A model generated the notes under the pieces. The model ran no database searches and was not told where the DNA came from. It saw only the letters and a list, made by a program, of their open reading frames with translations. DNA of 64,000 nt from a virus: the UHGV virus genome UHGV-0348865. One strand, 5' to 3'. The position numbers and the translations under genes are program-made. Positions 1-62,302 of this stretch are shown piece by piece (the stretch's first letter is position 1; each line of letters opens with the position of its first letter).

Positions 1-599
1 AATTGACTGTTTGTTCCGTTGTTAGTTAACTTGACCCCAGCATATCTTCCGTTGACTGTAGAGTTAACACCCCACGTAGCTTCATACTCAGAGAGTTTCA
101 TATACTGAGAAAGGCTTCCGTTGATATTTTGCAGTTCTGTCTGAACAAGAGCAATCTCTTGACCTTGATCGTTAACAATACCTTCTACTGTCTGAATCTT
201 AGTTGTGTTACCTTCGATGCTAGTCTTAAAACCAGATACAGTGCTTTCCAGCTTCACAGGAGGTTGAACAGAATTATCCCAAATATCCTCAGTGGACAGG
301 TTCCCCATCTGGGTTTGGATATCTGCAATAGCTGTTTCTATCTCTGTAGTAATTCTATTCTCAAGCCCATCAAATTGTAGATTCATTGCATTAAGAGCTT
401 TAATACGAACATCAATCTCTTCGTGAATTTCATCTATAGCTTGGAACATTTGGTTAGTAGCTGTACTGACTTTTTGTAATTCATCATACACGGCTACGTT
501 ATATGTTTCTGTGTCCTGTACATTATTGAGAAACCCAACGTTGTACGGGAGTGTGGTGTTGTTACGACCTGTATTCTTTCTAAATCCTCCAGCACCCAT
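1..599 (-). CDS. tail-associated structural protein, N-terminal part (partial; ORF runs off the window start)
   Basis: ATG at 599-597 on minus strand preceded by AGGAGGG ribosome-binding site; frame stays open to coordinate 1; predicted coiled-coil-like sequence; context next to tail genes. Confidence 0.5.
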   Translation of the reverse strand, partial: MGAGGFRKNTGRNNTTLPYNVGFLNNVQDTETYNVAVYDELQKVSTATNQMFQAIDEIHEEIDVRIKALNAMNLQFDGLENRITTEIETAIADIQTQMGNLSTEDIWDNSVQPPVKLESTVSGFKTSIEGNTTKIQTVEGIVNDQGQEIALVQTELQNINGSLSQYMKLSEYEATWGVNSTVNGRYAGVKLTNNGTNSQ

Positions 600-17063: not shown

Positions 17064-18605
17064 TTAGTAACTCTGATTCCATCTGCTTACGTTTGCCTCA
17101 TACAAAGAAGCACTTCCGTAGCTAACGTCATGCTTAGAGCGACCACGATGTGTAACAGAGCACGCTGAATAGCGCATTGCATCCATTAAGTCATCATGTT
17201 CTTTAATAATCTTACCAACCTTACGGTGATATCTAGCTTTCTCTTCAAATAGCTTAGCGTTAGCGGCTGTGTTAAAGATTTTAAAGCGTCCACTCATCAT
17301 TCTTTCTCGGATATCCGTGATTCCCGGTTCTACAAAGAAGTTCTTTTTACCATCCATTCCAATTTTGTTGTAGAAGGTCTCACTCTGTACGTTAACTCCT
17401 GCATTCTTATAGAATTGAGCAACAGATGAACCACTACCTTTCTCAATATTGTCCGCATCGTGCGGTAGGATGACAGGAATCCACTGACCACGACCATTAA
17501 TAGCTGGAGCATGATACACTGGAGTAAAGCCACCTTCTTTATATGAGTCGTAAACATAGATAGTATCCGTGTTTGCATCGTAAGCTGTCCAAACAGCAGC
17601 AGTTGGGTGATCAATACCAATATCAATTGCACAGACACGTTTCCACGTATCAGGAATTTCGAATGGTTCACATTTAATTGTGTCATCCGATACATCATAA
17701 ATCAAACCACTTCCTAACAATGGCATACCTTTCGAACGCATCTCTAACTGCCACGCTGGAATACCTTCAGTCATATCTTTTATATCTTGGTCAGTGATAT
17801 GTCCACCTAGGTCTGCATGAGCATCCCACCAAGAAGCATTCTGGAAATATAGAGAACCTGTGTTCTCATCCCCTTCACCTTTCATAAATTTATCTACCAG
17901 TTCAGTTAAACCGTTCTCTGGTGTAGCTGTAATTGTAACTAGACCTTTAGTTGTGAGTGTACGTGTGACGCACTGTGCGAATATAGCCATAGACTCGTAT
18001 GGATCTTCTTCGTCTAACCAAATGTAGTCAACTGTTGCACCCATCAATGTGTGTTCACCCTGTTGGGTTGAACGGAATTCTAATGTACTTAAACCGTCAA
18101 ACTCTCCTCTTTCGTTTTGATGTTTGATTTGTACGATTTGAAGTTTGTTACCATCTCGCTCTATCGTGTCAATGACGATAGCATCACGAGGAATGACACC
18201 TGTCCCCAATAAGTTTGTATCCTTTCCGATAGGCGTACCAAACAATTCCTTTTGCAACACTTTCCTTGTGGAATCCCCTGTAATACCAACTGCCCATGCT
18301 AAGATAGGTCTTTTAAATTTATATCCTGTCCACCAAGTTGGGTAGCGACCTGTGACATGACAAGCAAACTCGTATGCCTCGCTGTAAGATTTACCAACAC
18401 GGTTCGCTGCACACAAGAATCTAAAGCGATGCTTCAATCCTGCTGCATAAAATTTCTTTTGGAAGTCATACGCCTTGAAAGACAAAATCTTATTATACTT
18501 CCTCCATTGGTCACGCTCTTTCAACATATTCAATAGTGCTTTCTTTTCCTCTACACTAAGGTTGTTACCAGTTAGAGCTTCATAAATTTGTTTATCTAAT
18601 GACAT
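17064..18605 (-). CDS. terL: terminase large subunit
   Basis: 513-aa ORF; Walker A-like ANRVGKS near N-terminus; Asp/Glu-rich nuclease-like C-terminal half; precedes portal. Confidence 0.75.
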   Translation of the reverse strand: MSLDKQIYEALTGNNLSVEEKKALLNMLKERDQWRKYNKILSFKAYDFQKKFYAAGLKHRFRFLCAANRVGKSYSEAYEFACHVTGRYPTWWTGYKFKRPILAWAVGITGDSTRKVLQKELFGTPIGKDTNLLGTGVIPRDAIVIDTIERDGNKLQIVQIKHQNERGEFDGLSTLEFRSTQQGEHTLMGATVDYIWLDEEDPYESMAIFAQCVTRTLTTKGLVTITATPENGLTELVDKFMKGEGDENTGSLYFQNASWWDAHADLGGHITDQDIKDMTEGIPAWQLEMRSKGMPLLGSGLIYDVSDDTIKCEPFEIPDTWKRVCAIDIGIDHPTAAVWTAYDANTDTIYVYDSYKEGGFTPVYHAPAINGRGQWIPVILPHDADNIEKGSGSSVAQFYKNAGVNVQSETFYNKIGMDGKKNFFVEPGITDIRERMMSGRFKIFNTAANAKLFEEKARYHRKVGKIIKEHDDLMDAMRYSACSVTHRGRSKHDVSYGSASLYEANVSRWNQSY

Positions 18606-18766
18606 ACTTCCTCCAGTTTAAAAATAGAAAAGGGAAAGTCCCTTCGTCAAAGAACCTCCCCTCTCCACTACAAGGGTACACTGCAAAAGAACATCGTGGC
18701 AATAAAACTATAACAATCCTCAGATTGCTAGTCAGATGATCTTCGACAGCTCCCTGTTTCCTTTAA

Positions 18767-19240
18767 TTAACTCTCGTCCGCTTCCTCCCCCTTTTCAGCG
18801 TCCTCAGAGTTGTCTTCTTCTGGAGGCATAACGTCGATACCAAGTGCTCCAGTCAAGAAGTCCTTGATTTGTGCATTCAATGATTCTTCGTTGATTACAT
18901 TCTCTTCCTCAATCTTAACTTCAACAGAGGCCGCCTTAGGATATACCAGATCTGCAACTTTTGATGCAGCCTTGAATCTAAGATCAGGTGGAATATTAGG
19001 ATCTTCGTAAATTTGAATTAACACTTCATCAGGAGACAAATGACTTGCAGCAACACGGTCCAACATTAATTGTGTCAGTTTACCTCTACTACCTCTGGGT
19101 CGTCCGAATTTATTTCCCTTTTGAAACTTCCCATTGCTTGGGTTCATACCACGGCTTTCGAGTTCTTCCGTTACTCCGGGTAATCTTCCTGTAACCTCAG
19201 CTACCTGTGCAGGCGTGAGTTCTCCGTTTTCTCCAAACAT
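18767..19240 (-). CDS. candidate terminase small subunit
   Basis: 157-aa ORF directly upstream of terL on the same strand; N-terminal helix-rich region, acidic C-terminus. Confidence 0.4.
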   Translation of the reverse strand: MFGENGELTPAQVAEVTGRLPGVTEELESRGMNPSNGKFQKGNKFGRPRGSRGKLTQLMLDRVAASHLSPDEVLIQIYEDPNIPPDLRFKAASKVADLVYPKAASVEVKIEEENVINEESLNAQIKDFLTGALGIDVMPPEEDNSEDAEKGEEADES

Positions 19241-19296
19241 TTTATACTCCTTCTACATTATCAACAACACAAAAAGCCTCCCAACGGAGGCAAACA

Positions 19297-19932
19297 TTAC
19301 TTACAATCACCAACGGACAGGTTAAACATCTTACCTAGAGCAATCGTCTCACCTTCCCACGGAAGTTCTGCACCCTTCTCTTCCTCTAAAAGAATAGAGC
19401 CGTCGACCAAAAATTTTTCGTAGTCTCGCAGTGCGTCGTCTACTAACTCACTCTTGTGAATCCACGTAATAGTTTCTGTACCATCCTCTTCGATTCGAAC
19501 ATCACGATGCCATTCATCTTTGGAGGTAATGTAATCATGGAGCATTTCATATTCAGCTTCTTCAATCATCTCAATCATTGCACGAGCGTAGTCAGGGAGG
19601 TGATCATGTTTGGTAGATTCATATTCAACTACTTCCAGAGTAGATGGTTGTGTTTTAGTTTTAGAATCAGGGCGAGTAGTATGAATCAAATCTAACATGT
19701 TTTTGTTCTCCGTAATAGTTGGTTTAAGAATACTTCCACTATATAAATCTTGTACAGCTAGTCCTGAAATATTTCCCATAGTTTCTAAATGTTGCAAGCT
19801 ACAACCAGAACGGCATAGCTGTGAATTATAATCGTTAAGGTCCATTGCTTTAATGTGGAAAGGAGAACCAGAAGGGAAACTACCTCCATCTCCATAAACA
19901 CCTTCCATGTTACGTGCGATTAAACTATTCAT
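19297..19932 (-). CDS. hypothetical protein
   Basis: 211-aa ORF in late operon. Confidence 0.35.
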   Translation of the reverse strand: MNSLIARNMEGVYGDGGSFPSGSPFHIKAMDLNDYNSQLCRSGCSLQHLETMGNISGLAVQDLYSGSILKPTITENKNMLDLIHTTRPDSKTKTQPSTLEVVEYESTKHDHLPDYARAMIEMIEEAEYEMLHDYITSKDEWHRDVRIEEDGTETITWIHKSELVDDALRDYEKFLVDGSILLEEEKGAELPWEGETIALGKMFNLSVGDCK

Positions 19933-20179
19933 CTGTCTCTCCCTTACTATAATCTTTATACGTTTCTACTTTGTAAGTGCGGAATGCTCTGAAGAAGAGC
20001 CAACCTAAGCTACTCACATCAATTGTAATATCGAAATCTGTTTCATCATCTAAATCAACAAGACGACCTAAGCATGTAGCTTCCATCCCTTCTTCAGAGT
20101 CACTATTGATTACGAAAGCGTATGTCTCTGTTCTAAACCGAGGCACCATCTCTGATAAAAAGTCTAATACTAAATTCAT
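19925..20179 (-). CDS. hypothetical protein (first ORF of late operon)
   Basis: 84-aa ORF; overlaps start of 19297..19932. Confidence 0.3.
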   Translation of the reverse strand: MNLVLDFLSEMVPRFRTETYAFVINSDSEEGMEATCLGRLVDLDDETDFDITIDVSSLGWLFFRAFRTYKVETYKDYSKGETDE

Positions 20180-20204
20180 AATTCTTCTCCTCTGAATAAG
20201 AGTA

Positions 20205-20340
20205 TAAAGGGCACATCATAAGACCTACCCGTAAAGGCCTCCTCATACCAACAACCCGTGTACGCTGAAGTAAAGGGCATGTCATAAAGGGGACTTCATG
20301 TTAAGGCACCTTCATAAAGGCTATATCACGTTAAGGCTTA
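20205..20340. repeat. 4-5 imperfect direct repeats of approx TAAAGGGCAYNTCATAAAG
   Basis: copies near 20205, 20231, 20271, 20301, 20331 immediately upstream of the late operon start. Confidence 0.55.
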
Positions 20341-21029
20341 TCCACCCACGTACTGAATCTCAACTTACCACATTCCTTACACTTCCATGTTGATAGATAC
20401 AAACCATGTATTCTTTCATCCCCGTAAGCTTTACGAAGAAGATAGTAATTGTGCTTACACTTCATCCGTCTAAATACTTTAATTAGATTCATTAAGTCCT
20501 CTCTTAAGCTTATATATAAGAGTTTAAAATTCTGATTTGACCGAGTGGGGCTAGCCGCTCGCCGCGCGTTTCCTAAAAAGGGGGAGTCCTCATTTAAAAA
20601 AGGGTTATTGGCAATGCCTTTACCCTCCCTTTCAACGTTCCACCTTTCCCCGTGCCTACTCCCCGTAGTTATTCCCCCGTGTATACTACCCAATACATTA
20701 CCTACCCGTTTATTTAGTACCCCTTTAGAGAGTGAGAGAAAGGCTAGCACTGTACAGGCACAATCATAACAGGTCTAATAATACCGTATAGTAACCATTC
20801 CGTCCCCCATAGTTTGAATGTAAATAGTTTCAATAGTTGTTATTATGAGTGCAATAATGATATATGTATTAATTAAGTGGATGATTGTATTTCTTTTAAT
20901 TGTTTCTTTTATTACTTTCTTTTTCAGCGTACATGAGCGTAGCGAATGGTCTTTGATGTTTGAGTAATGCTATTAATAGTTAACTAATTATTTAAGTGGT
21001 ATATTATTACCGCACTATCTTGCTATGCT

Positions 21030-21105
21030 TCCCCGTGGTCTGTTCTGCGGTTGTTGTATCCCCGTTTGTCCTGGTCTGTTGGTCTGTTACCCGTGGTGTT
21101 ACGCT
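21030..21105. repeat. iteron-like short direct repeats (GGTCTGTT x3, CCCGTGGT x2) in divergent control region
   Basis: visible repeats in an otherwise AT-rich ORF-poor region between minus-strand late genes and plus-strand early genes. Confidence 0.45.
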
Positions 21106-21225
21106 AACGCTACGAATGTTATAAAGTAACAATAAGAAGTAAGCTGATTCTCTGAGTATGGAAAGATTAGTAAATTAAATTCCTTTAGTTTTCAGTAGGA
21201 TGCAAGAAAGTTAGAAAATAAATGA

Positions 21226-21253
21226 TTGACAGTCTTTTCCTTTATTATATAGT
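21226..21253 (+). promoter_or_regulatory. sigma70-type promoter (TTGACA-16 nt-TATAGT) upstream of first early ORF
   Basis: consensus -35 at 21226-21231 and near-consensus -10 at 21248-21253. Confidence 0.55.
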
Positions 21254-21291
21254 TGTTGACAGTTGATTGAATCTATCTAAGGAATAACGAA

Positions 21292-21780
21292 ATGGCTAAA
21301 GCAATGCAGGTAGTTAATCTGGCAAGTTATGCACTGATTGCCGCGATCGGTGTTAGTGCACTGGTCACATCTCTTTCTGATAAGGCTATCGCTAGTCCTG
21401 CTCCTGCAACTGATGCGGCTAGTGTCTTCTCTAGTTCCATCAATAAGGGTTGGATGATTTGCAACGGTGCGGATAGTGACACCAATCAAATCGTCTTAAA
21501 GGTTAAATTCAGTAACGTTTCCCGTGATGGTCTGGTCGTTAGTACCAAAACACTAGATAATCAGGGCAATGAAGATTTGCTATTGAAGCGTACTGATAAC
21601 GATCCCGAACTAGTTACCTTCGGCACTGTACAACGTTACAGTCATGCGAAAGCTGTCACGAATCTGGTCAGTTATGGCCCGATGAACGAATCAATGCTTG
21701 CTACCACGGTTTACAATAACGAAGATAATGCGGTTTATACCGTACACATCAATTTGGCTAACTGTATCGGTGCTAAATAA
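21292..21780 (+). CDS. secreted early protein (signal peptide)
   Basis: 162-aa ORF, N-terminal hydrophobic signal with AIA-SP site. Confidence 0.45.
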   Translation: MAKAMQVVNLASYALIAAIGVSALVTSLSDKAIASPAPATDAASVFSSSINKGWMICNGADSDTNQIVLKVKFSNVSRDGLVVSTKTLDNQGNEDLLLKRTDNDPELVTFGTVQRYSHAKAVTNLVSYGPMNESMLATTVYNNEDNAVYTVHINLANCIGAK

Positions 21781-21804
21781 TATTAAATCTAACAGGAAAT
21801 ATTT

Positions 21805-22062
21805 ATGGGAAATGAAACTATCGCACTGATTGATACACATAATTACGGTGGCGTTACGCTCTCCTTTGATGAATCAACCGACGCTGGTTATTTATCTTTT
21901 CTTGCTAAAGGTGAGATACAAAATATCCGCTTTCCCGTTGTTTGTCTGGTGCAGGATTATATAACAGTTGGGAAGTATTTGGCGCAACGTGGGATTCTCC
22001 TATCGCTGGAAGAAGTGGAACAAATCAGTGTATCCTTTTTTGGCGAGGATAGCAACCAATGA
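21805..22062 (+). CDS. hypothetical protein
   Basis: 85-aa ORF. Confidence 0.3.
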   Translation: MGNETIALIDTHNYGGVTLSFDESTDAGYLSFLAKGEIQNIRFPVVCLVQDYITVGKYLAQRGILLSLEEVEQISVSFFGEDSNQ

Positions 22063-59620: not shown

Positions 59621-60013
59621 ATGAATATTGGTTTAGACTATGATGACACTTACACAGCAGATAGACGTCTGTGGAGAGATGTGATAGGTTTAATGAAAGA
59701 GTACGGACATGATGTAAGATTCGTGACTTTCCGTTTCTCAGAGCCTAATGGTTATGATAACGTGGATATCCTCTACGATGCAGAGACCCTGCAAATCCCT
59801 GTCATCTTTTGTAATGGTGTGCAGAAGGATGATGTGTGTCGACAGTTAGGTTTCTTTGTAGATATCTGGATTGATGACTTCCCTGTTGGAATCCCCAAAA
59901 AGGACCACCTAGATGGTATGCTGAAGGGTGTGAGACTTAATGACCTTAGGGCAGCACCTCCTGTAGAAATAGCCGCTCCTGTGTACTCTGAAGAGCCTTT
60001 GGTGATACGTTAA
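59621..60013 (+). CDS. HAD-like phosphatase (possible deoxynucleotidase)
   Basis: N-terminal IGLDYDDTYT resembles HAD motif I DxDxT. Confidence 0.4.
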   Translation: MNIGLDYDDTYTADRRLWRDVIGLMKEYGHDVRFVTFRFSEPNGYDNVDILYDAETLQIPVIFCNGVQKDDVCRQLGFFVDIWIDDFPVGIPKKDHLDGMLKGVRLNDLRAAPPVEIAAPVYSEEPLVIR

Positions 60014-60360
60014 TAAGGAAGATTAAATGATTTGGGTTCACACTTATAAGATTGGAAAGAAAGTAATTACTGTTGTACATCACTCTGAAGAAAGCGCTAT
60101 CGCTTCTCAAGAAGTTCTTAAAGGTGAAGTTAAAGTATACGCTGAAGTAAAAGGAACAGAAAATGATTAATAAGATTAAAGATAATGAATATTTACTTAA
60201 CTCTTCTATTTTAGATAATGGAAATACTATTGATTTCATTACTCTTTCAGAGTTAAAAGAGTTAGTAGATTCCTTATATTCAGAGGAACAAAATCGTTTA
60301 TTACAAGAGTCTCTTAGTGGAGACTATGTTTGTGATGGGTGTTTAATTTAAGAGGTCTTT

Positions 60361-60864
60361 ATGGCTGAAGTTTATTTTGCAGGAGATGGTCATTTAGGTC
60401 ATCGTAACATCTGTAGTTTTCGTAAGCAATTTAAAAACATTGAAGAACACGACAAAGCAATTCTAGCTGCATTTGATCATGTAACTAAGCGTGATAAAGT
60501 CTTCTTTACTGGTGATTGGGTGTTTGAAAAGTATGCCCTTGATATCATCGCTGAAGTAAAAGGGGATAAGCATCTAGTCTTAGGGAACCATGACAGGTTA
60601 GAACTTCTCCCTGATATGATGAAAGTCTTCCGTAGAATCTCTGGTGATTATAAATATAAAGAGTTTTGGGTAACTCATATTCCTATTCACACTGATGAAA
60701 TGAGAGGGAAGTTTAATATTTATGCTCATACCCATAATCATGTAATTGATGATTGGAGATATTTCTGTACATCAATGGAGCAAATTAATTATAAAGCTGT
60801 TTCTCTGCAAGAGATTAGGAAGGTTTTCGATGAAAGAAGAAAAGAACAAGATCTCATTATTTAA
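60361..60864 (+). CDS. metallophosphoesterase (calcineurin-like)
   Basis: GDGHLGH, GDWV, GNHD and HTHNH motifs in canonical order. Confidence 0.6.
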   Translation: MAEVYFAGDGHLGHRNICSFRKQFKNIEEHDKAILAAFDHVTKRDKVFFTGDWVFEKYALDIIAEVKGDKHLVLGNHDRLELLPDMMKVFRRISGDYKYKEFWVTHIPIHTDEMRGKFNIYAHTHNHVIDDWRYFCTSMEQINYKAVSLQEIRKVFDERRKEQDLII

Positions 60865-61555
60865 AGAACCTGTAGTTTATAAAGACTCTATCAGAGATAA
60901 ATATAATGAGATGTTAAAGAAACAAGCTGATTCTAATCTTCACTATCAGAGGATAGTAGAACAATCTAACTTTAAAGGTTTACTTGAATGGTAACTTATA
61001 TCCTTTACTTTTTAGCTTTCTTAGGAATAATCTTTTTATCTATTATTCTTGAATTTGGTTTAAGTAAATTAGTTAATTATTTAGGTAATAAGTAATTAAT
61101 ATTCTTTTAAATAGAGAATCAAAGTCCCTAGGAGTCCCTACAACCTAAATCAAGGAATCCTTAATTCTCTATTTTTATCTCGCAGGTGGCTCCTGCCCTT
61201 CCGGTAGTCTCTCAATTTCTTACAAACTTATGAGAGATTGTCGTCTGCGCCTTATCGTCGTCAGTCCCGTGCAATAACTTTATCAGCTATAACTTATATA
61301 CATTATAGCACTTAGAGATATACTACCATGAAATTTAATCATAAATATGCAGCTACAGAAAAAGCTAGAGCTTATGTAACTGCTAGACAGTCTCGGGTTT
61401 ATAAGAGACAGTCTCCAACAAATAACTCTAAAGAGACTTTTGTTTGGACAAAACCTACTACCTTCCGGTAGTTCCTACACTATATATGTAATGTATATTA
61501 TACATAACCGCTCAAAGAGAGCAACAATCTTTCAAATTAAATAAGGAAATTAATA

Positions 61556-62302
61556 ATGAGCATGATCCCAACTATCGCAACTGCTTCCCGTAAATCCAAC
61601 TACGATGTAATCCCTGATGGTGAATACGAAGCACGTATCGTTCGTGTAGTAGGTTTGGGTGTTCACAATCGTGACCCTTGGATTGACCCGAAGACCAAAG
61701 CAGTAACTCCTAAGAATCCGGCTTTCCGTATGGATTTAGCTTTCGAGCTGATTGGTGTTGATGCTACTGGTAAAGATTCCGATGGTAAGGCATTAGAACC
61801 ACGTCCTGCTTGTCAGTTCAAGAGCTATGATGTAAACCCACGAGCTAAGAACTCTGGTATTCTTGATCTTTGCAAGATGATTGACCCAAGTATTCAAGCA
61901 CTGAAAGGTGATCTGTCTTGGTTCAAGGATGTTCTGTTAGGTCAGCCTGTTAACATTCTGGTTAACTCTTATACTAACAAAGCTGGTGAAGTTAAAAACT
62001 CCATCAAGACCATTTCTCCAATCCCAACCAAATATCGTGCAGCAGTTGGTGAAGCTCGCAGTCCTCTGGTATTCTTCGAACCGTATGCTGAAACTGACGA
62101 GAACGTAGCATCCTATCAACTGATGTTCCCGTTCCAGCGCAACCTGCTTACTCAAGCTAATGACGCTAAGAACATGCCTCTGGCTGGTCGTGAAATTACT
62201 CGTGCTTCTGAAACAGAACAGAAAGAAGCTACTCCTTCAATCCCTACGATTGATAAAGAGCCTGCTTCTACTTATGAAGATGATAACGACAGCCCTTTTT
62301 GA
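61556..62302 (+). CDS. candidate single-stranded DNA-binding protein (T7 gp2.5-like)
   Basis: acidic C-terminal tail ending in Phe (YEDDNDSPF) as in T7 gp2.5; otherwise by context. Confidence 0.4.
   Translation: MSMIPTIATASRKSNYDVIPDGEYEARIVRVVGLGVHNRDPWIDPKTKAVTPKNPAFRMDLAFELIGVDATGKDSDGKALEPRPACQFKSYDVNPRAKNSGILDLCKMIDPSIQALKGDLSWFKDVLLGQPVNILVNSYTNKAGEVKNSIKTISPIPTKYRAAVGEARSPLVFFEPYAETDENVASYQLMFPFQRNLLTQANDAKNMPLAGREITRASETEQKEATPSIPTIDKEPASTYEDDNDSPF

Follow-up and report, generated by a model that had tools for sequence, protein, structure and literature searches.

What kind of element occupies positions 20205-21290 of the viral genome UHGV-0348865? The stretch analysed (64,000 nt, hereafter the window) carries several sets of short direct repeats at this place, and the original prediction, made from the letters alone, had described a divergent control region and a candidate replication origin, packaging site or genome terminus. 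In a megablast search, the segment 19900-21400 matched 98 phage records, nearly all of which were Escherichia or Shigella podophages of ~77 kb. Judged by these matches, the window belongs to the phiEco32 group of coliphages (Kuravirus, Gordonclarkvirinae), which are podophages of E. coli with genomes of ~77 kb, and its orientation is the reverse of that of the phiEco32 reference. An IMG/VR pattern scan for further relatives yielded only two loci, one of which was phiEco32 itself.

The Direct Terminal Repeat and the Genome Ends

In the phiEco32 record, the first 193 nt are identical to the last 193 nt, and they aligned to the window at 20745..20553 as a single match with 92.3% identity. This one copy of the direct terminal repeat (DTR) runs into the phiEco32 left end on one side and into the right end on the other, indicating a permuted assembly in which the terminal copies were collapsed. 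We therefore consider it highly probable that the flagged region is the concatemer junction of a linear phiEco32-like genome with a 193-bp DTR, closed by assembly. The two halves of the region are opposite ends of the virion DNA and adjoin each other only in concatemers or where an assembly has collapsed the repeat, so that the description as a divergent control region does not hold for the linear molecule. The suggestion of a terminus or terminal repeat was borne out in that the DTR homologue lies within the predicted span, but the repeats listed for it only flank the DTR, and the DTR itself, with its internal CCCCGT array, had been overlooked. The features of the DTR are as follows (the slash marks the boundary).

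20553..20745, no strand: DTR, 193 bp, one copy in the window; the left genome end is 20745 (read leftward) and the right end is 20553
20575..20602, no strand: conserved DTR core AAAAAGGGGGAGTCCTCATTTAAAAAAG (144-171 of the DTR), carrying CCCTTTTTTA-N10-CCCCCTTTTTA on the minus strand
20549..20556, no strand: inner DTR boundary GGCT/AGCC, palindromic, with the boundary central in CTAG
20742..20749, no strand: outer DTR boundary GGCT/AGCA, with the same heptamer as the inner boundary

The boundaries do not depend on phiEco32 only. Seven records (Paul, YF01, WFI101126, CHD5UKE1, SU10, phiEco32 and IMEP8) begin at the base homologous to 20745. The Paul record annotates a repeat_region at 1..193, "predicted by PhageTerm", and the YF01 record likewise gives a repeat_region at 1..193; both correspond to 20745..20553 of the window. 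Within the DTR, the identity of the window to Paul, YF01, SU10 and WFI101126 was 93-95%. The YF01 paper states that restriction profiling, primer walking and subcloning established the phiEco32 repeat, that the 193-bp repeats were present on full-length nanopore reads of YF01, and that 30 phages of the group carry DTRs of 192-193 bp with a conserved stretch at ~130-170. The SU10 paper reported a sharp drop in reads beyond the final base of each repeat and described an internal CCCTTTTTTA repeat in the DTR. The distance between the conserved boundaries was 193 bp in the window and in seven of eight close relatives and 192 bp in SR02, while in some lineages the DTR measures 205 or 249 bp and is otherwise divergent.

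Alignments of 8 and 12 phages indicated that conservation ends exactly at 20745/20746. The most conserved bin of the whole region was 20575-20599 (DTR 147-171), with a mean identity of 0.97 to the window base in 11 other phages. Both DTR boundaries fall in the middle of the CTAG of the heptamer GGCT/AGC, and GGCTAGC occurs in the 64-kb window only at these two boundaries (outer copy 20742-20748). The CTAG of the inner boundary was kept in 12 of 12 aligned phages, as was the GGCTA of the outer boundary; EP335, which was compared separately, has GGCCA at the outer boundary. Beyond the outer boundary, the flank alternates between two alleles, GCACTGTACAGG and ACTCTGATAA. A likeness of the GC-rich DTR end to the PaP3 cos site was judged too weak to use.

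The order of elements on either side of the DTR also matched the phiEco32 ends, with gp1 through TerS and TerL on one side and the early promoter and last gene on the other. The left end, read leftward from 20745, begins with the DTR, which is followed by an invariant block (20510-20548), a gene of 53 aa and a TWAAGG array. Next come the gp4-like and gp5-like genes and a terminator; the first late promoter and the terminase genes stand beyond it. In the right end, read rightward from 20553, the DTR is followed by conserved non-coding DNA (480 bp) and then by the early sigma-70 promoter and the early genes. For annotation, 20745 and 20553 are thus the positions at which the record should be opened, each end carrying the 193-bp repeat. 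The DTR of this genus has already been described, and the main feature of the region is in that sense already known. As far as we found, the GGCT/AGC boundaries, the CCCGT array, the TWAAGG-N6-CA array and the co-changing paired sites described below are not mentioned in the Kuravirus papers surveyed, a set without Savalia 2008 and Pavlova 2012; those papers describe the DTR, its conserved core and one internal CCCTTTTTTA repeat.

The TWAAGG-N6-CA Array and Cassette Turnover

A repeat search of 20205-20340 returned four 17-mers of the TAAAGGGCACATCATAA type and one 26-nt pair. The repeats proposed for this interval proved to be real, and they resolved into seven TWAAGG-N6-CA units, far above chance.

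20205..20344, plus strand: TWAAGG-N6-CA array, seven near-tandem 14-nt units starting at 20205, 20232, 20271, 20285, 20301, 20315 and 20331
20609..20622, minus strand: inverted TWAAGG unit TAAAGGCATTGCCA, a single copy inside the DTR

The units of the array recur every 14-16 nt. The array is flanked by the 53-aa gene and the gp4-like gene, at a distance of 209-348 bp inward from the left DTR; its last unit overlaps the 3' end of the 53-aa gene. For TWAAGG-N6-CA, the window yielded 14 matches where 5.1 ± 2.1 were expected, and none of 100 shuffles reached 14. TAAAGG was found five times in a stretch of 141 nt for which 0.055 copies would be expected (P = 4e-9). In a consensus built from 76 units of 12 phages, TWAAGG was invariant and CA was present in 69-71 of the 76. 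The inverted unit in the DTR has an equivalent match in phiEco32 and, by alignment, in the Bas86-type DTR.

The number of TWAAGG matches varies from 4 to 7 per phage, and small open reading frame (ORF) cassettes stand between units in phiEco32, FH3, rybdy3, SGF2 and MN05. In phiEco32, gp2 (46 aa, very acidic; L001 466-617) lies between two TWAAGG units, as does its FH3 counterpart, and the same place holds 22 nt in the window (20261-20282). The small inserts of rybdy3, SGF2 and MN05 are different ones, one being flanked by a duplicated ribosome-binding-site region, TCCTCTGAATAA. Such turnover raises the alternative that the units are mainly by-products of cassette exchange, that is, duplicated intergenic boundaries and recombination substrates without a function of their own. 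The exact gain and loss of small ORFs between units, exemplified by gp2, would agree with this, as would the flanking of the rybdy3, SGF2 and MN05 inserts by duplicated TCCTCTGAATAA...AGTATAAAGGGC and the variation in copy number. However, the bipartite consensus was kept in 76 units despite differing spacers, the orientation is uniform and a further copy stands in the DTR, which points to selection on the TWAAGG-N6-CA motif. We give the cassette explanation little credence.

The CCCGT Array and the Right-End Flank

A second motif crosses the DTR and extends to both of its flanks. The features of this array and of the right-end flank are listed below.

20228..21094, plus strand: CCCGT array (mostly TCCCCGT), with copies at 20228, 20255 and 20421 on the left, at 20649, 20662, 20676 and 20705 in the DTR, and at 21032, 21061 and 21090 on the right
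20800..21000, no strand: AT-rich stretch in the conserved non-coding right-end flank, with a T-rich tract at 20885-20931
20868..20880, plus strand: paired site 1, ATTAATTAAGTGG
20987..21005, plus strand: paired site 2, ATTATTTAAGTGG, overlapping an extended -10-like TGGTATATT at 20997-21005
21029..21097, plus strand: composite units CCCCGT-NN-GTCTG(TT), comprising CCCCGTGGTCTGTT, CCCCGTTTGTCC, TGGTCTGTT twice and ACCCGTGG
21117..21131, no strand: palindrome TGTTATAAAGTAACA, ~95 nt upstream of the early promoter
21226-21253 (within 21203..21253), plus strand: early sigma-70 promoter TTGACA-16-TATAGT (11 of 12 positions matched), preceded by A-rich DNA

CCCGT was the most enriched strand-specific word of the region: the plus strand has 10 copies where 0.36 would be expected (P = 7e-12), and the minus strand has none. 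In the form CCCRT, four copies were present in the DTR of all 12 phages, including the divergent lineages with repeats of 205 and 249 bp, and the reverse orientation was almost absent. The Bas86 type carries TACCCAT variants of the motif. The repeats noted earlier at 21030-21105 were likewise confirmed: TGGTCTGTT occurs three times (21036, 21072 and 21080), TTCCCCGTGGT and TTACCCGTGGT once each and (T)TMCCCGTGGT twice, and the CCCGT word had been seen only in these right-hand members. The composite unit recurs in Bas89 and EP335 (CCCCGTATGTCTG, CCCCGTTGGTCTG) and in Bas86 (CCCGTTGGTCTG). Most of the aligned phages retain the palindrome TGTTATAAAGTAACA, unchanged or with minor changes; it reads TGTTATAAAATAACA in the Bas86 type, while MN05 and Bas89 depart from it.

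An Rfam scan of 19500-22000 (E ≤ 1) gave no match, and RNA structure was not significant either in the TWAAGG array (z = -0.57) or in the fold of the right-flank repeats (z = -1.4). RNA-level explanations of the repeats are not supported.

The AT-rich stretch with repeated units, which had also been pointed out beforehand, was found as described, and all three of the predicted repeat sets exceed chance by a wide margin. Its GC content is 28.4% against 41.9% for the window, and it contains two ATTAWTTAAGTGG units, 119 nt apart. The two paired sites flank the T-rich tract and co-vary among the phages: both read AAGTGG in eight phages, GATTGGTA in Bas89 and GACTGGTA in Bas86, MLP3 and BS3. This parallel change, which involves three lineages only, is the pattern that would be expected for one lineage-specific factor or for gene conversion. 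In a promoter scan, TTAACT-16-TATTAT was found at 20980-21007 (9 of 12 positions).

These properties raise the alternative that 20800-21000 is a replication origin, in which paired initiator sites would surround an unwinding element and the CCCGT and GGTCTG repeats would act as iterons; such an origin would be compatible with a terminus. The GC content of 28%, the blocks conserved in all lineages and the change of the AAGTGG sites in parallel to GATTGG and GACTGG, as for one lineage-specific protein, would agree with this. The end-proximal promoters of T7 occupy a similar position, and T7 promoters near the ends serve as secondary origins. The region also shares with iteron-type origins the direct repeats that adjoin an AT-rich stretch. 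However, its repeats are too short, at 5-9 nt (CCCGT, GGTCTGTT) or 14 nt (TWAAGG-N6-CA), and irregularly spaced, unlike phased iterons of 17-22 bp. No initiator-like gene was recognized beside the stretch in a search in which the flanking proteins matched no Pfam family, and the literature surveyed gives no mapped origin for any Kuravirus. The GC-skew inflection that had been suggested as a check was present as a cumulative minimum at ~20-22 kb, but it falls where the coding strand switches and carries no information on an origin. The proposed origin thus gained no specific support, and we regard it as unlikely.

Another alternative is that the repeats serve transcriptional control only, with the TWAAGG units as operators or promoter elements of the left-end genes, for example bound by the zinc-ribbon-like product, and the right-flank repeats as regulator sites for the early promoter. 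The TWAAGG array lies in intergenic DNA directly upstream of the gp4-like gene, and its last unit, GCCCTTTATACT, has a TATACT hexamer that is kept in eight close relatives. On the right, the palindrome stands upstream of the early promoter, and the extended -10-like site overlaps the second AAGTGG site. No unit, however, fits the sigma-70 consensus or the gp36 consensus (tAATGTAtA). Moreover, CCCGT keeps one orientation throughout the DTR and a coding region, as would be unusual for operators, and one TWAAGG unit is inverted inside the DTR. A purely transcriptional role is improbable in our assessment.

Candidate Packaging Signals

The arrays are enriched, strand-pure and kept across lineages with differing surrounding sequence. 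We suggest that the conserved one-orientation arrays (CCCGT and TWAAGG-N6-CA) might be recognition sites for the small terminase or for another packaging or maturation factor; this is a serious possibility, although we put it somewhat short of an even chance. The terminase genes are as follows.

17064-18605, minus strand: large terminase TerL, 513 aa, with Pfam Terminase_6N and Terminase_6C
18767-19240, minus strand: candidate small terminase TerS, 157 aa, proposed on the basis of the HHpred match to PaP3 TerS in the YF01 paper

Both genes (17064-19240) sit 1.3-3.5 kb from the left terminus. The TerS candidate is 97-100% identical across most Escherichia and Shigella phage records and ~92% identical in divergent lineages. 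A phmmer search of it against the PDB gave no meaningful match, and its single-sequence AlphaFold model was of low confidence (pLDDT 61). The degree of conservation of the TerS candidate would fit the conserved arrays better than the lineage-variable AAGTGG pair.

By analogy with T7-type DTR phages, the junction could be processed as follows. The concatemer would be cut at the two GGCT/AGC boundaries and the repeat would be duplicated, leaving a DTR at both virion ends; the heptamer shared by the two boundaries suggests one nuclease specificity for both cuts. The right end would probably be the first to enter the cell, since the early promoter lies there, and it would be packaged last, whereas the left end would be packaged first. 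The TWAAGG array and the terminase genes would then stand at the first-packaged end.

Several points weigh against the interpretation as a junction with dedicated packaging repeats. The boundaries in this phage were transferred by homology from relatives. The relative SU7 was reported with a 53-bp DTR, about which its authors were themselves cautious. For the TWAAGG array, a gene separates it from the DTR, and its copy number varies with cassette insertions, as would also be expected of passive recombination substrates. Finally, phiEco32-like phages are without a T7-type phage RNA polymerase according to the SU10 paper, so that the analogy with T7 may fail in detail.

The SU10 authors noted that the missing polymerase leaves the maturation mechanism of the phiEco32 group unknown. 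A wider proposal is that the arrays and the GGCT/AGC sites form an apparatus for concatemer cutting and DTR duplication without a phage RNA polymerase, and that such arrays are general and functionally required in short-DTR podophages. We put this forward as speculation and consider it rather doubtful; if true, more than 90 Kuravirus genomes, which vary in motif and copy number, could help to assign a function to the T7 repeats. The recognition, cutting and duplication of short terminal repeats are understood only in outline, even for T7, and the boundary heptamer, the two arrays and the co-changing paired sites are concrete candidates for cis-acting packaging signals.

Comparison with Known Systems

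The terminal regions of phiEco32, SU10, Paul and YF01 are orthologous to the region studied, with 92-95% DTR identity, the same length of 193 bp, the same boundaries and the same core at 144-171. The flanking genes also agree. So do the early promoter ahead of the last gene and, before TerS and TerL, the terminator and late promoter. Two differences from phiEco32 were found: the acidic gp2 gene between TWAAGG units is missing here, and the first early gene lacks the N-terminal third of gp128.

T7, T3 and SP6 likewise possess a short exact DTR, of 160, 231 and ~174 bp, respectively, against 193 bp here. A short exact repeat with unique, non-permuted ends was found in the present case by homology to relatives with sharp read ends. 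In all three phages, we also observed strand-pure arrays of a short motif with a period of ~12-13 nt after the repeat, and in T7 and T3 within the repeat as well. The T7 motif (C/A)(C/A)TAAAG occurs in one orientation, with three copies in the 160-bp repeat, 11 at 175-361 and at least three at 39634-39706 before the right repeat. The sequences of the other two phages were checked in the same respect and contained a CYTAAAG array at 130-295 (T3) and a YCCTTAGT array at 225-345 (SP6). Arrays of this kind look like a general feature of short-DTR podophages. To our knowledge, the function of the T7 arrays has never been established, and a search of the literature on the function of the T7 heptamer arrays returned nothing usable.

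Further likenesses concern position and motif. The T7 early promoters for host RNA polymerase, A1-A3, lie 498-750 nt from the T7 left end, and here the distance from the right terminus at 20553 to the -35 element of the early promoter is 674 nt. The T7 motif (CA)TAAAG and the Kuravirus unit (CA)TAAAGG have the TAAAG core in common; the motifs are very short, and the likeness is thus a lead rather than evidence of common function. In contrast, the T7 group has no sequence homology with the Kuravirus junction. The Kuravirus early genes are at the conventional right end, and the TAAAGG array is at the opposite end, with a gene between array and DTR. According to the literature, phiEco32-like phages use the phage sigma factor gp36 and have no RNA polymerase of their own, so that the step of T7 maturation in which RNA polymerase pauses would have no counterpart in them. 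The phage does not belong to the T7 system but may work in a similar manner.

Arrays recognized by TerS include the R sites of lambda cosB and the pacL and pacR boxes of SPP1; PMC7672466 gives part of the background on such sites. As in those systems, the cut site here has several short direct repeats in its neighbourhood, at distances of up to a few hundred bp, and the terminase genes are close by; such properties are those that would be expected of TerS binding sites. Unlike them, the present genome has blunt ends with a DTR instead of cohesive ends or headful DNA, and its repeats are spread over ~870 bp on both sides of two cut sites.

Genes and Promoters of the Left End

The genes between the left terminus and the terminase genes had been assigned to a leftward late operon. 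The elements that bear on this assignment are given below.

20331..20492, minus strand: zinc-ribbon-like gene, 53 aa, CxH...CxxC; homologue of phiEco32 gp1 and first left-end gene
20510..20548, minus strand: near-invariant block adjoining the inner DTR boundary, with GTCAAA (20541-20536)-17-TATATA (20518-20513)
19252..19291, minus strand: intrinsic terminator (19291-19276), then the first gp36-type late promoter, TAATGTAGA at 19260-19252

On the minus strand, homologues of phiEco32 gp6, gp5 and gp4 follow TerL in that order. The TAATGTAGA stretch has the same sequence as the SU10 late promoter "gttgataatgtagaaggagtataaaatg" and is the counterpart of the mapped gp36-dependent promoter upstream of phiEco32 gene 6. 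Both the terminator and this first late promoter lie downstream of 19297-20492, which indicated that the left-end genes are a separate unit and do not belong to the late operon. The near-invariant block could account for their expression: it was near-identical in every lineage (identity bins 0.87-0.94), and its GTCAAA-17-TATATA is a putative weak sigma-70-like promoter for the left-end genes. This sequence matches 8 of 12 sigma-70 positions, which is under the scan threshold, and the homologous sequence was listed as a "potential sigma-70 promoter" by the SU10 authors.

The 53-aa product matched PHROG 7696 (E = 2.8e-16), and its start codon is preceded by AAGAGAGGA. The long ORF at 20331-20750 had been suspected of being mostly artefact, and this was upheld: only 20331-20492 behaves like a gene, and the GTG start at 20750 lies beyond the terminus at 20745, which makes the long ORF impossible on the linear genome. 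In the Paul record (MN045231), the coding sequence at 104..415 starts inside the 193-bp repeat, runs into the gp1 homologue and is the counterpart of the long ORF. We regard most of the long ORF as an artefact, and the Paul annotation likewise. Opening the record at its termini removes the artefactual 139-codon ORF, which in the Paul record is also annotated across the terminus.

Two further sites of this end were considered. A gp36-type promoter in the DTR, TAATGTATT (20700-20692, minus strand), was rejected; one-mismatch matches numbered 22 against 21 expected, and the site is not conserved. It agrees with the gp36 consensus tAATGTAtA at eight of nine positions and is directed at the left-end genes; at its position, phiEco32 has TAATGAATA, and the divergent lineages retain TAATG only. 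The sequence TTATCCACC at 20338-20346 (plus strand) matches the DnaA-box consensus TTATCCACA at eight of nine positions. It falls in the last codons of the 53-aa gene, and its conservation can be explained by the coding sequence.

Genes and Promoters of the Right End

The plus strand from 21292 encodes a homologue of gp128, the last gene of phiEco32.

21292-21780, plus strand: first early gene, 162 aa, corresponding to the C-terminal part of phiEco32 gp128

Its product matched PHROG 21410 (1-162 of 163) and PHROG 36409 (129-288 of 290). The N-terminal ~128 codons of the gp128 family, which are found in phiEco32, Bas91, SR02, rybdy3 and SGF2, are missing here and in FH3. The presence or absence of the N-terminal part among relatives suggests that the first early gene is modular.

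Consensus early promoters, in the plural, had been placed ahead of this gene. One of them, at 21226-21253, was confirmed and is homologous to the SU10 promoter ttgacagccttttcctttaatatatagt, which is described as lying "upstream of CDS125"; a second one at 21256 was discarded, as it offers TTGACA without a usable -10 element. A 40-codon ORF at 20845-20967 (plus strand), which would encode the strongly hydrophobic peptide MSAIMIYVLIKWMIVFLLIVSFITFFFSVHERSEWSLMFE, was also rejected as an improbable gene. A Shine-Dalgarno sequence is missing, and in SR02, SGF2, FH3 and others the frame is broken by indels whose lengths are not divisible by three.

Additional Observations

The gp5 homologue (19297-19932, minus strand) is called "ABC transporter" in many records and in PHROG 12176. 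No Pfam match was obtained for it at E ≤ 0.01, and the label looks unsupported.

Elsewhere in the window, 60001-62000 was the 2-kb bin with the lowest GC content (34.6% against ~42%). Matches of the TAATGTATA type cluster at 60131-61507, and this stretch may be another promoter-rich intergenic region.

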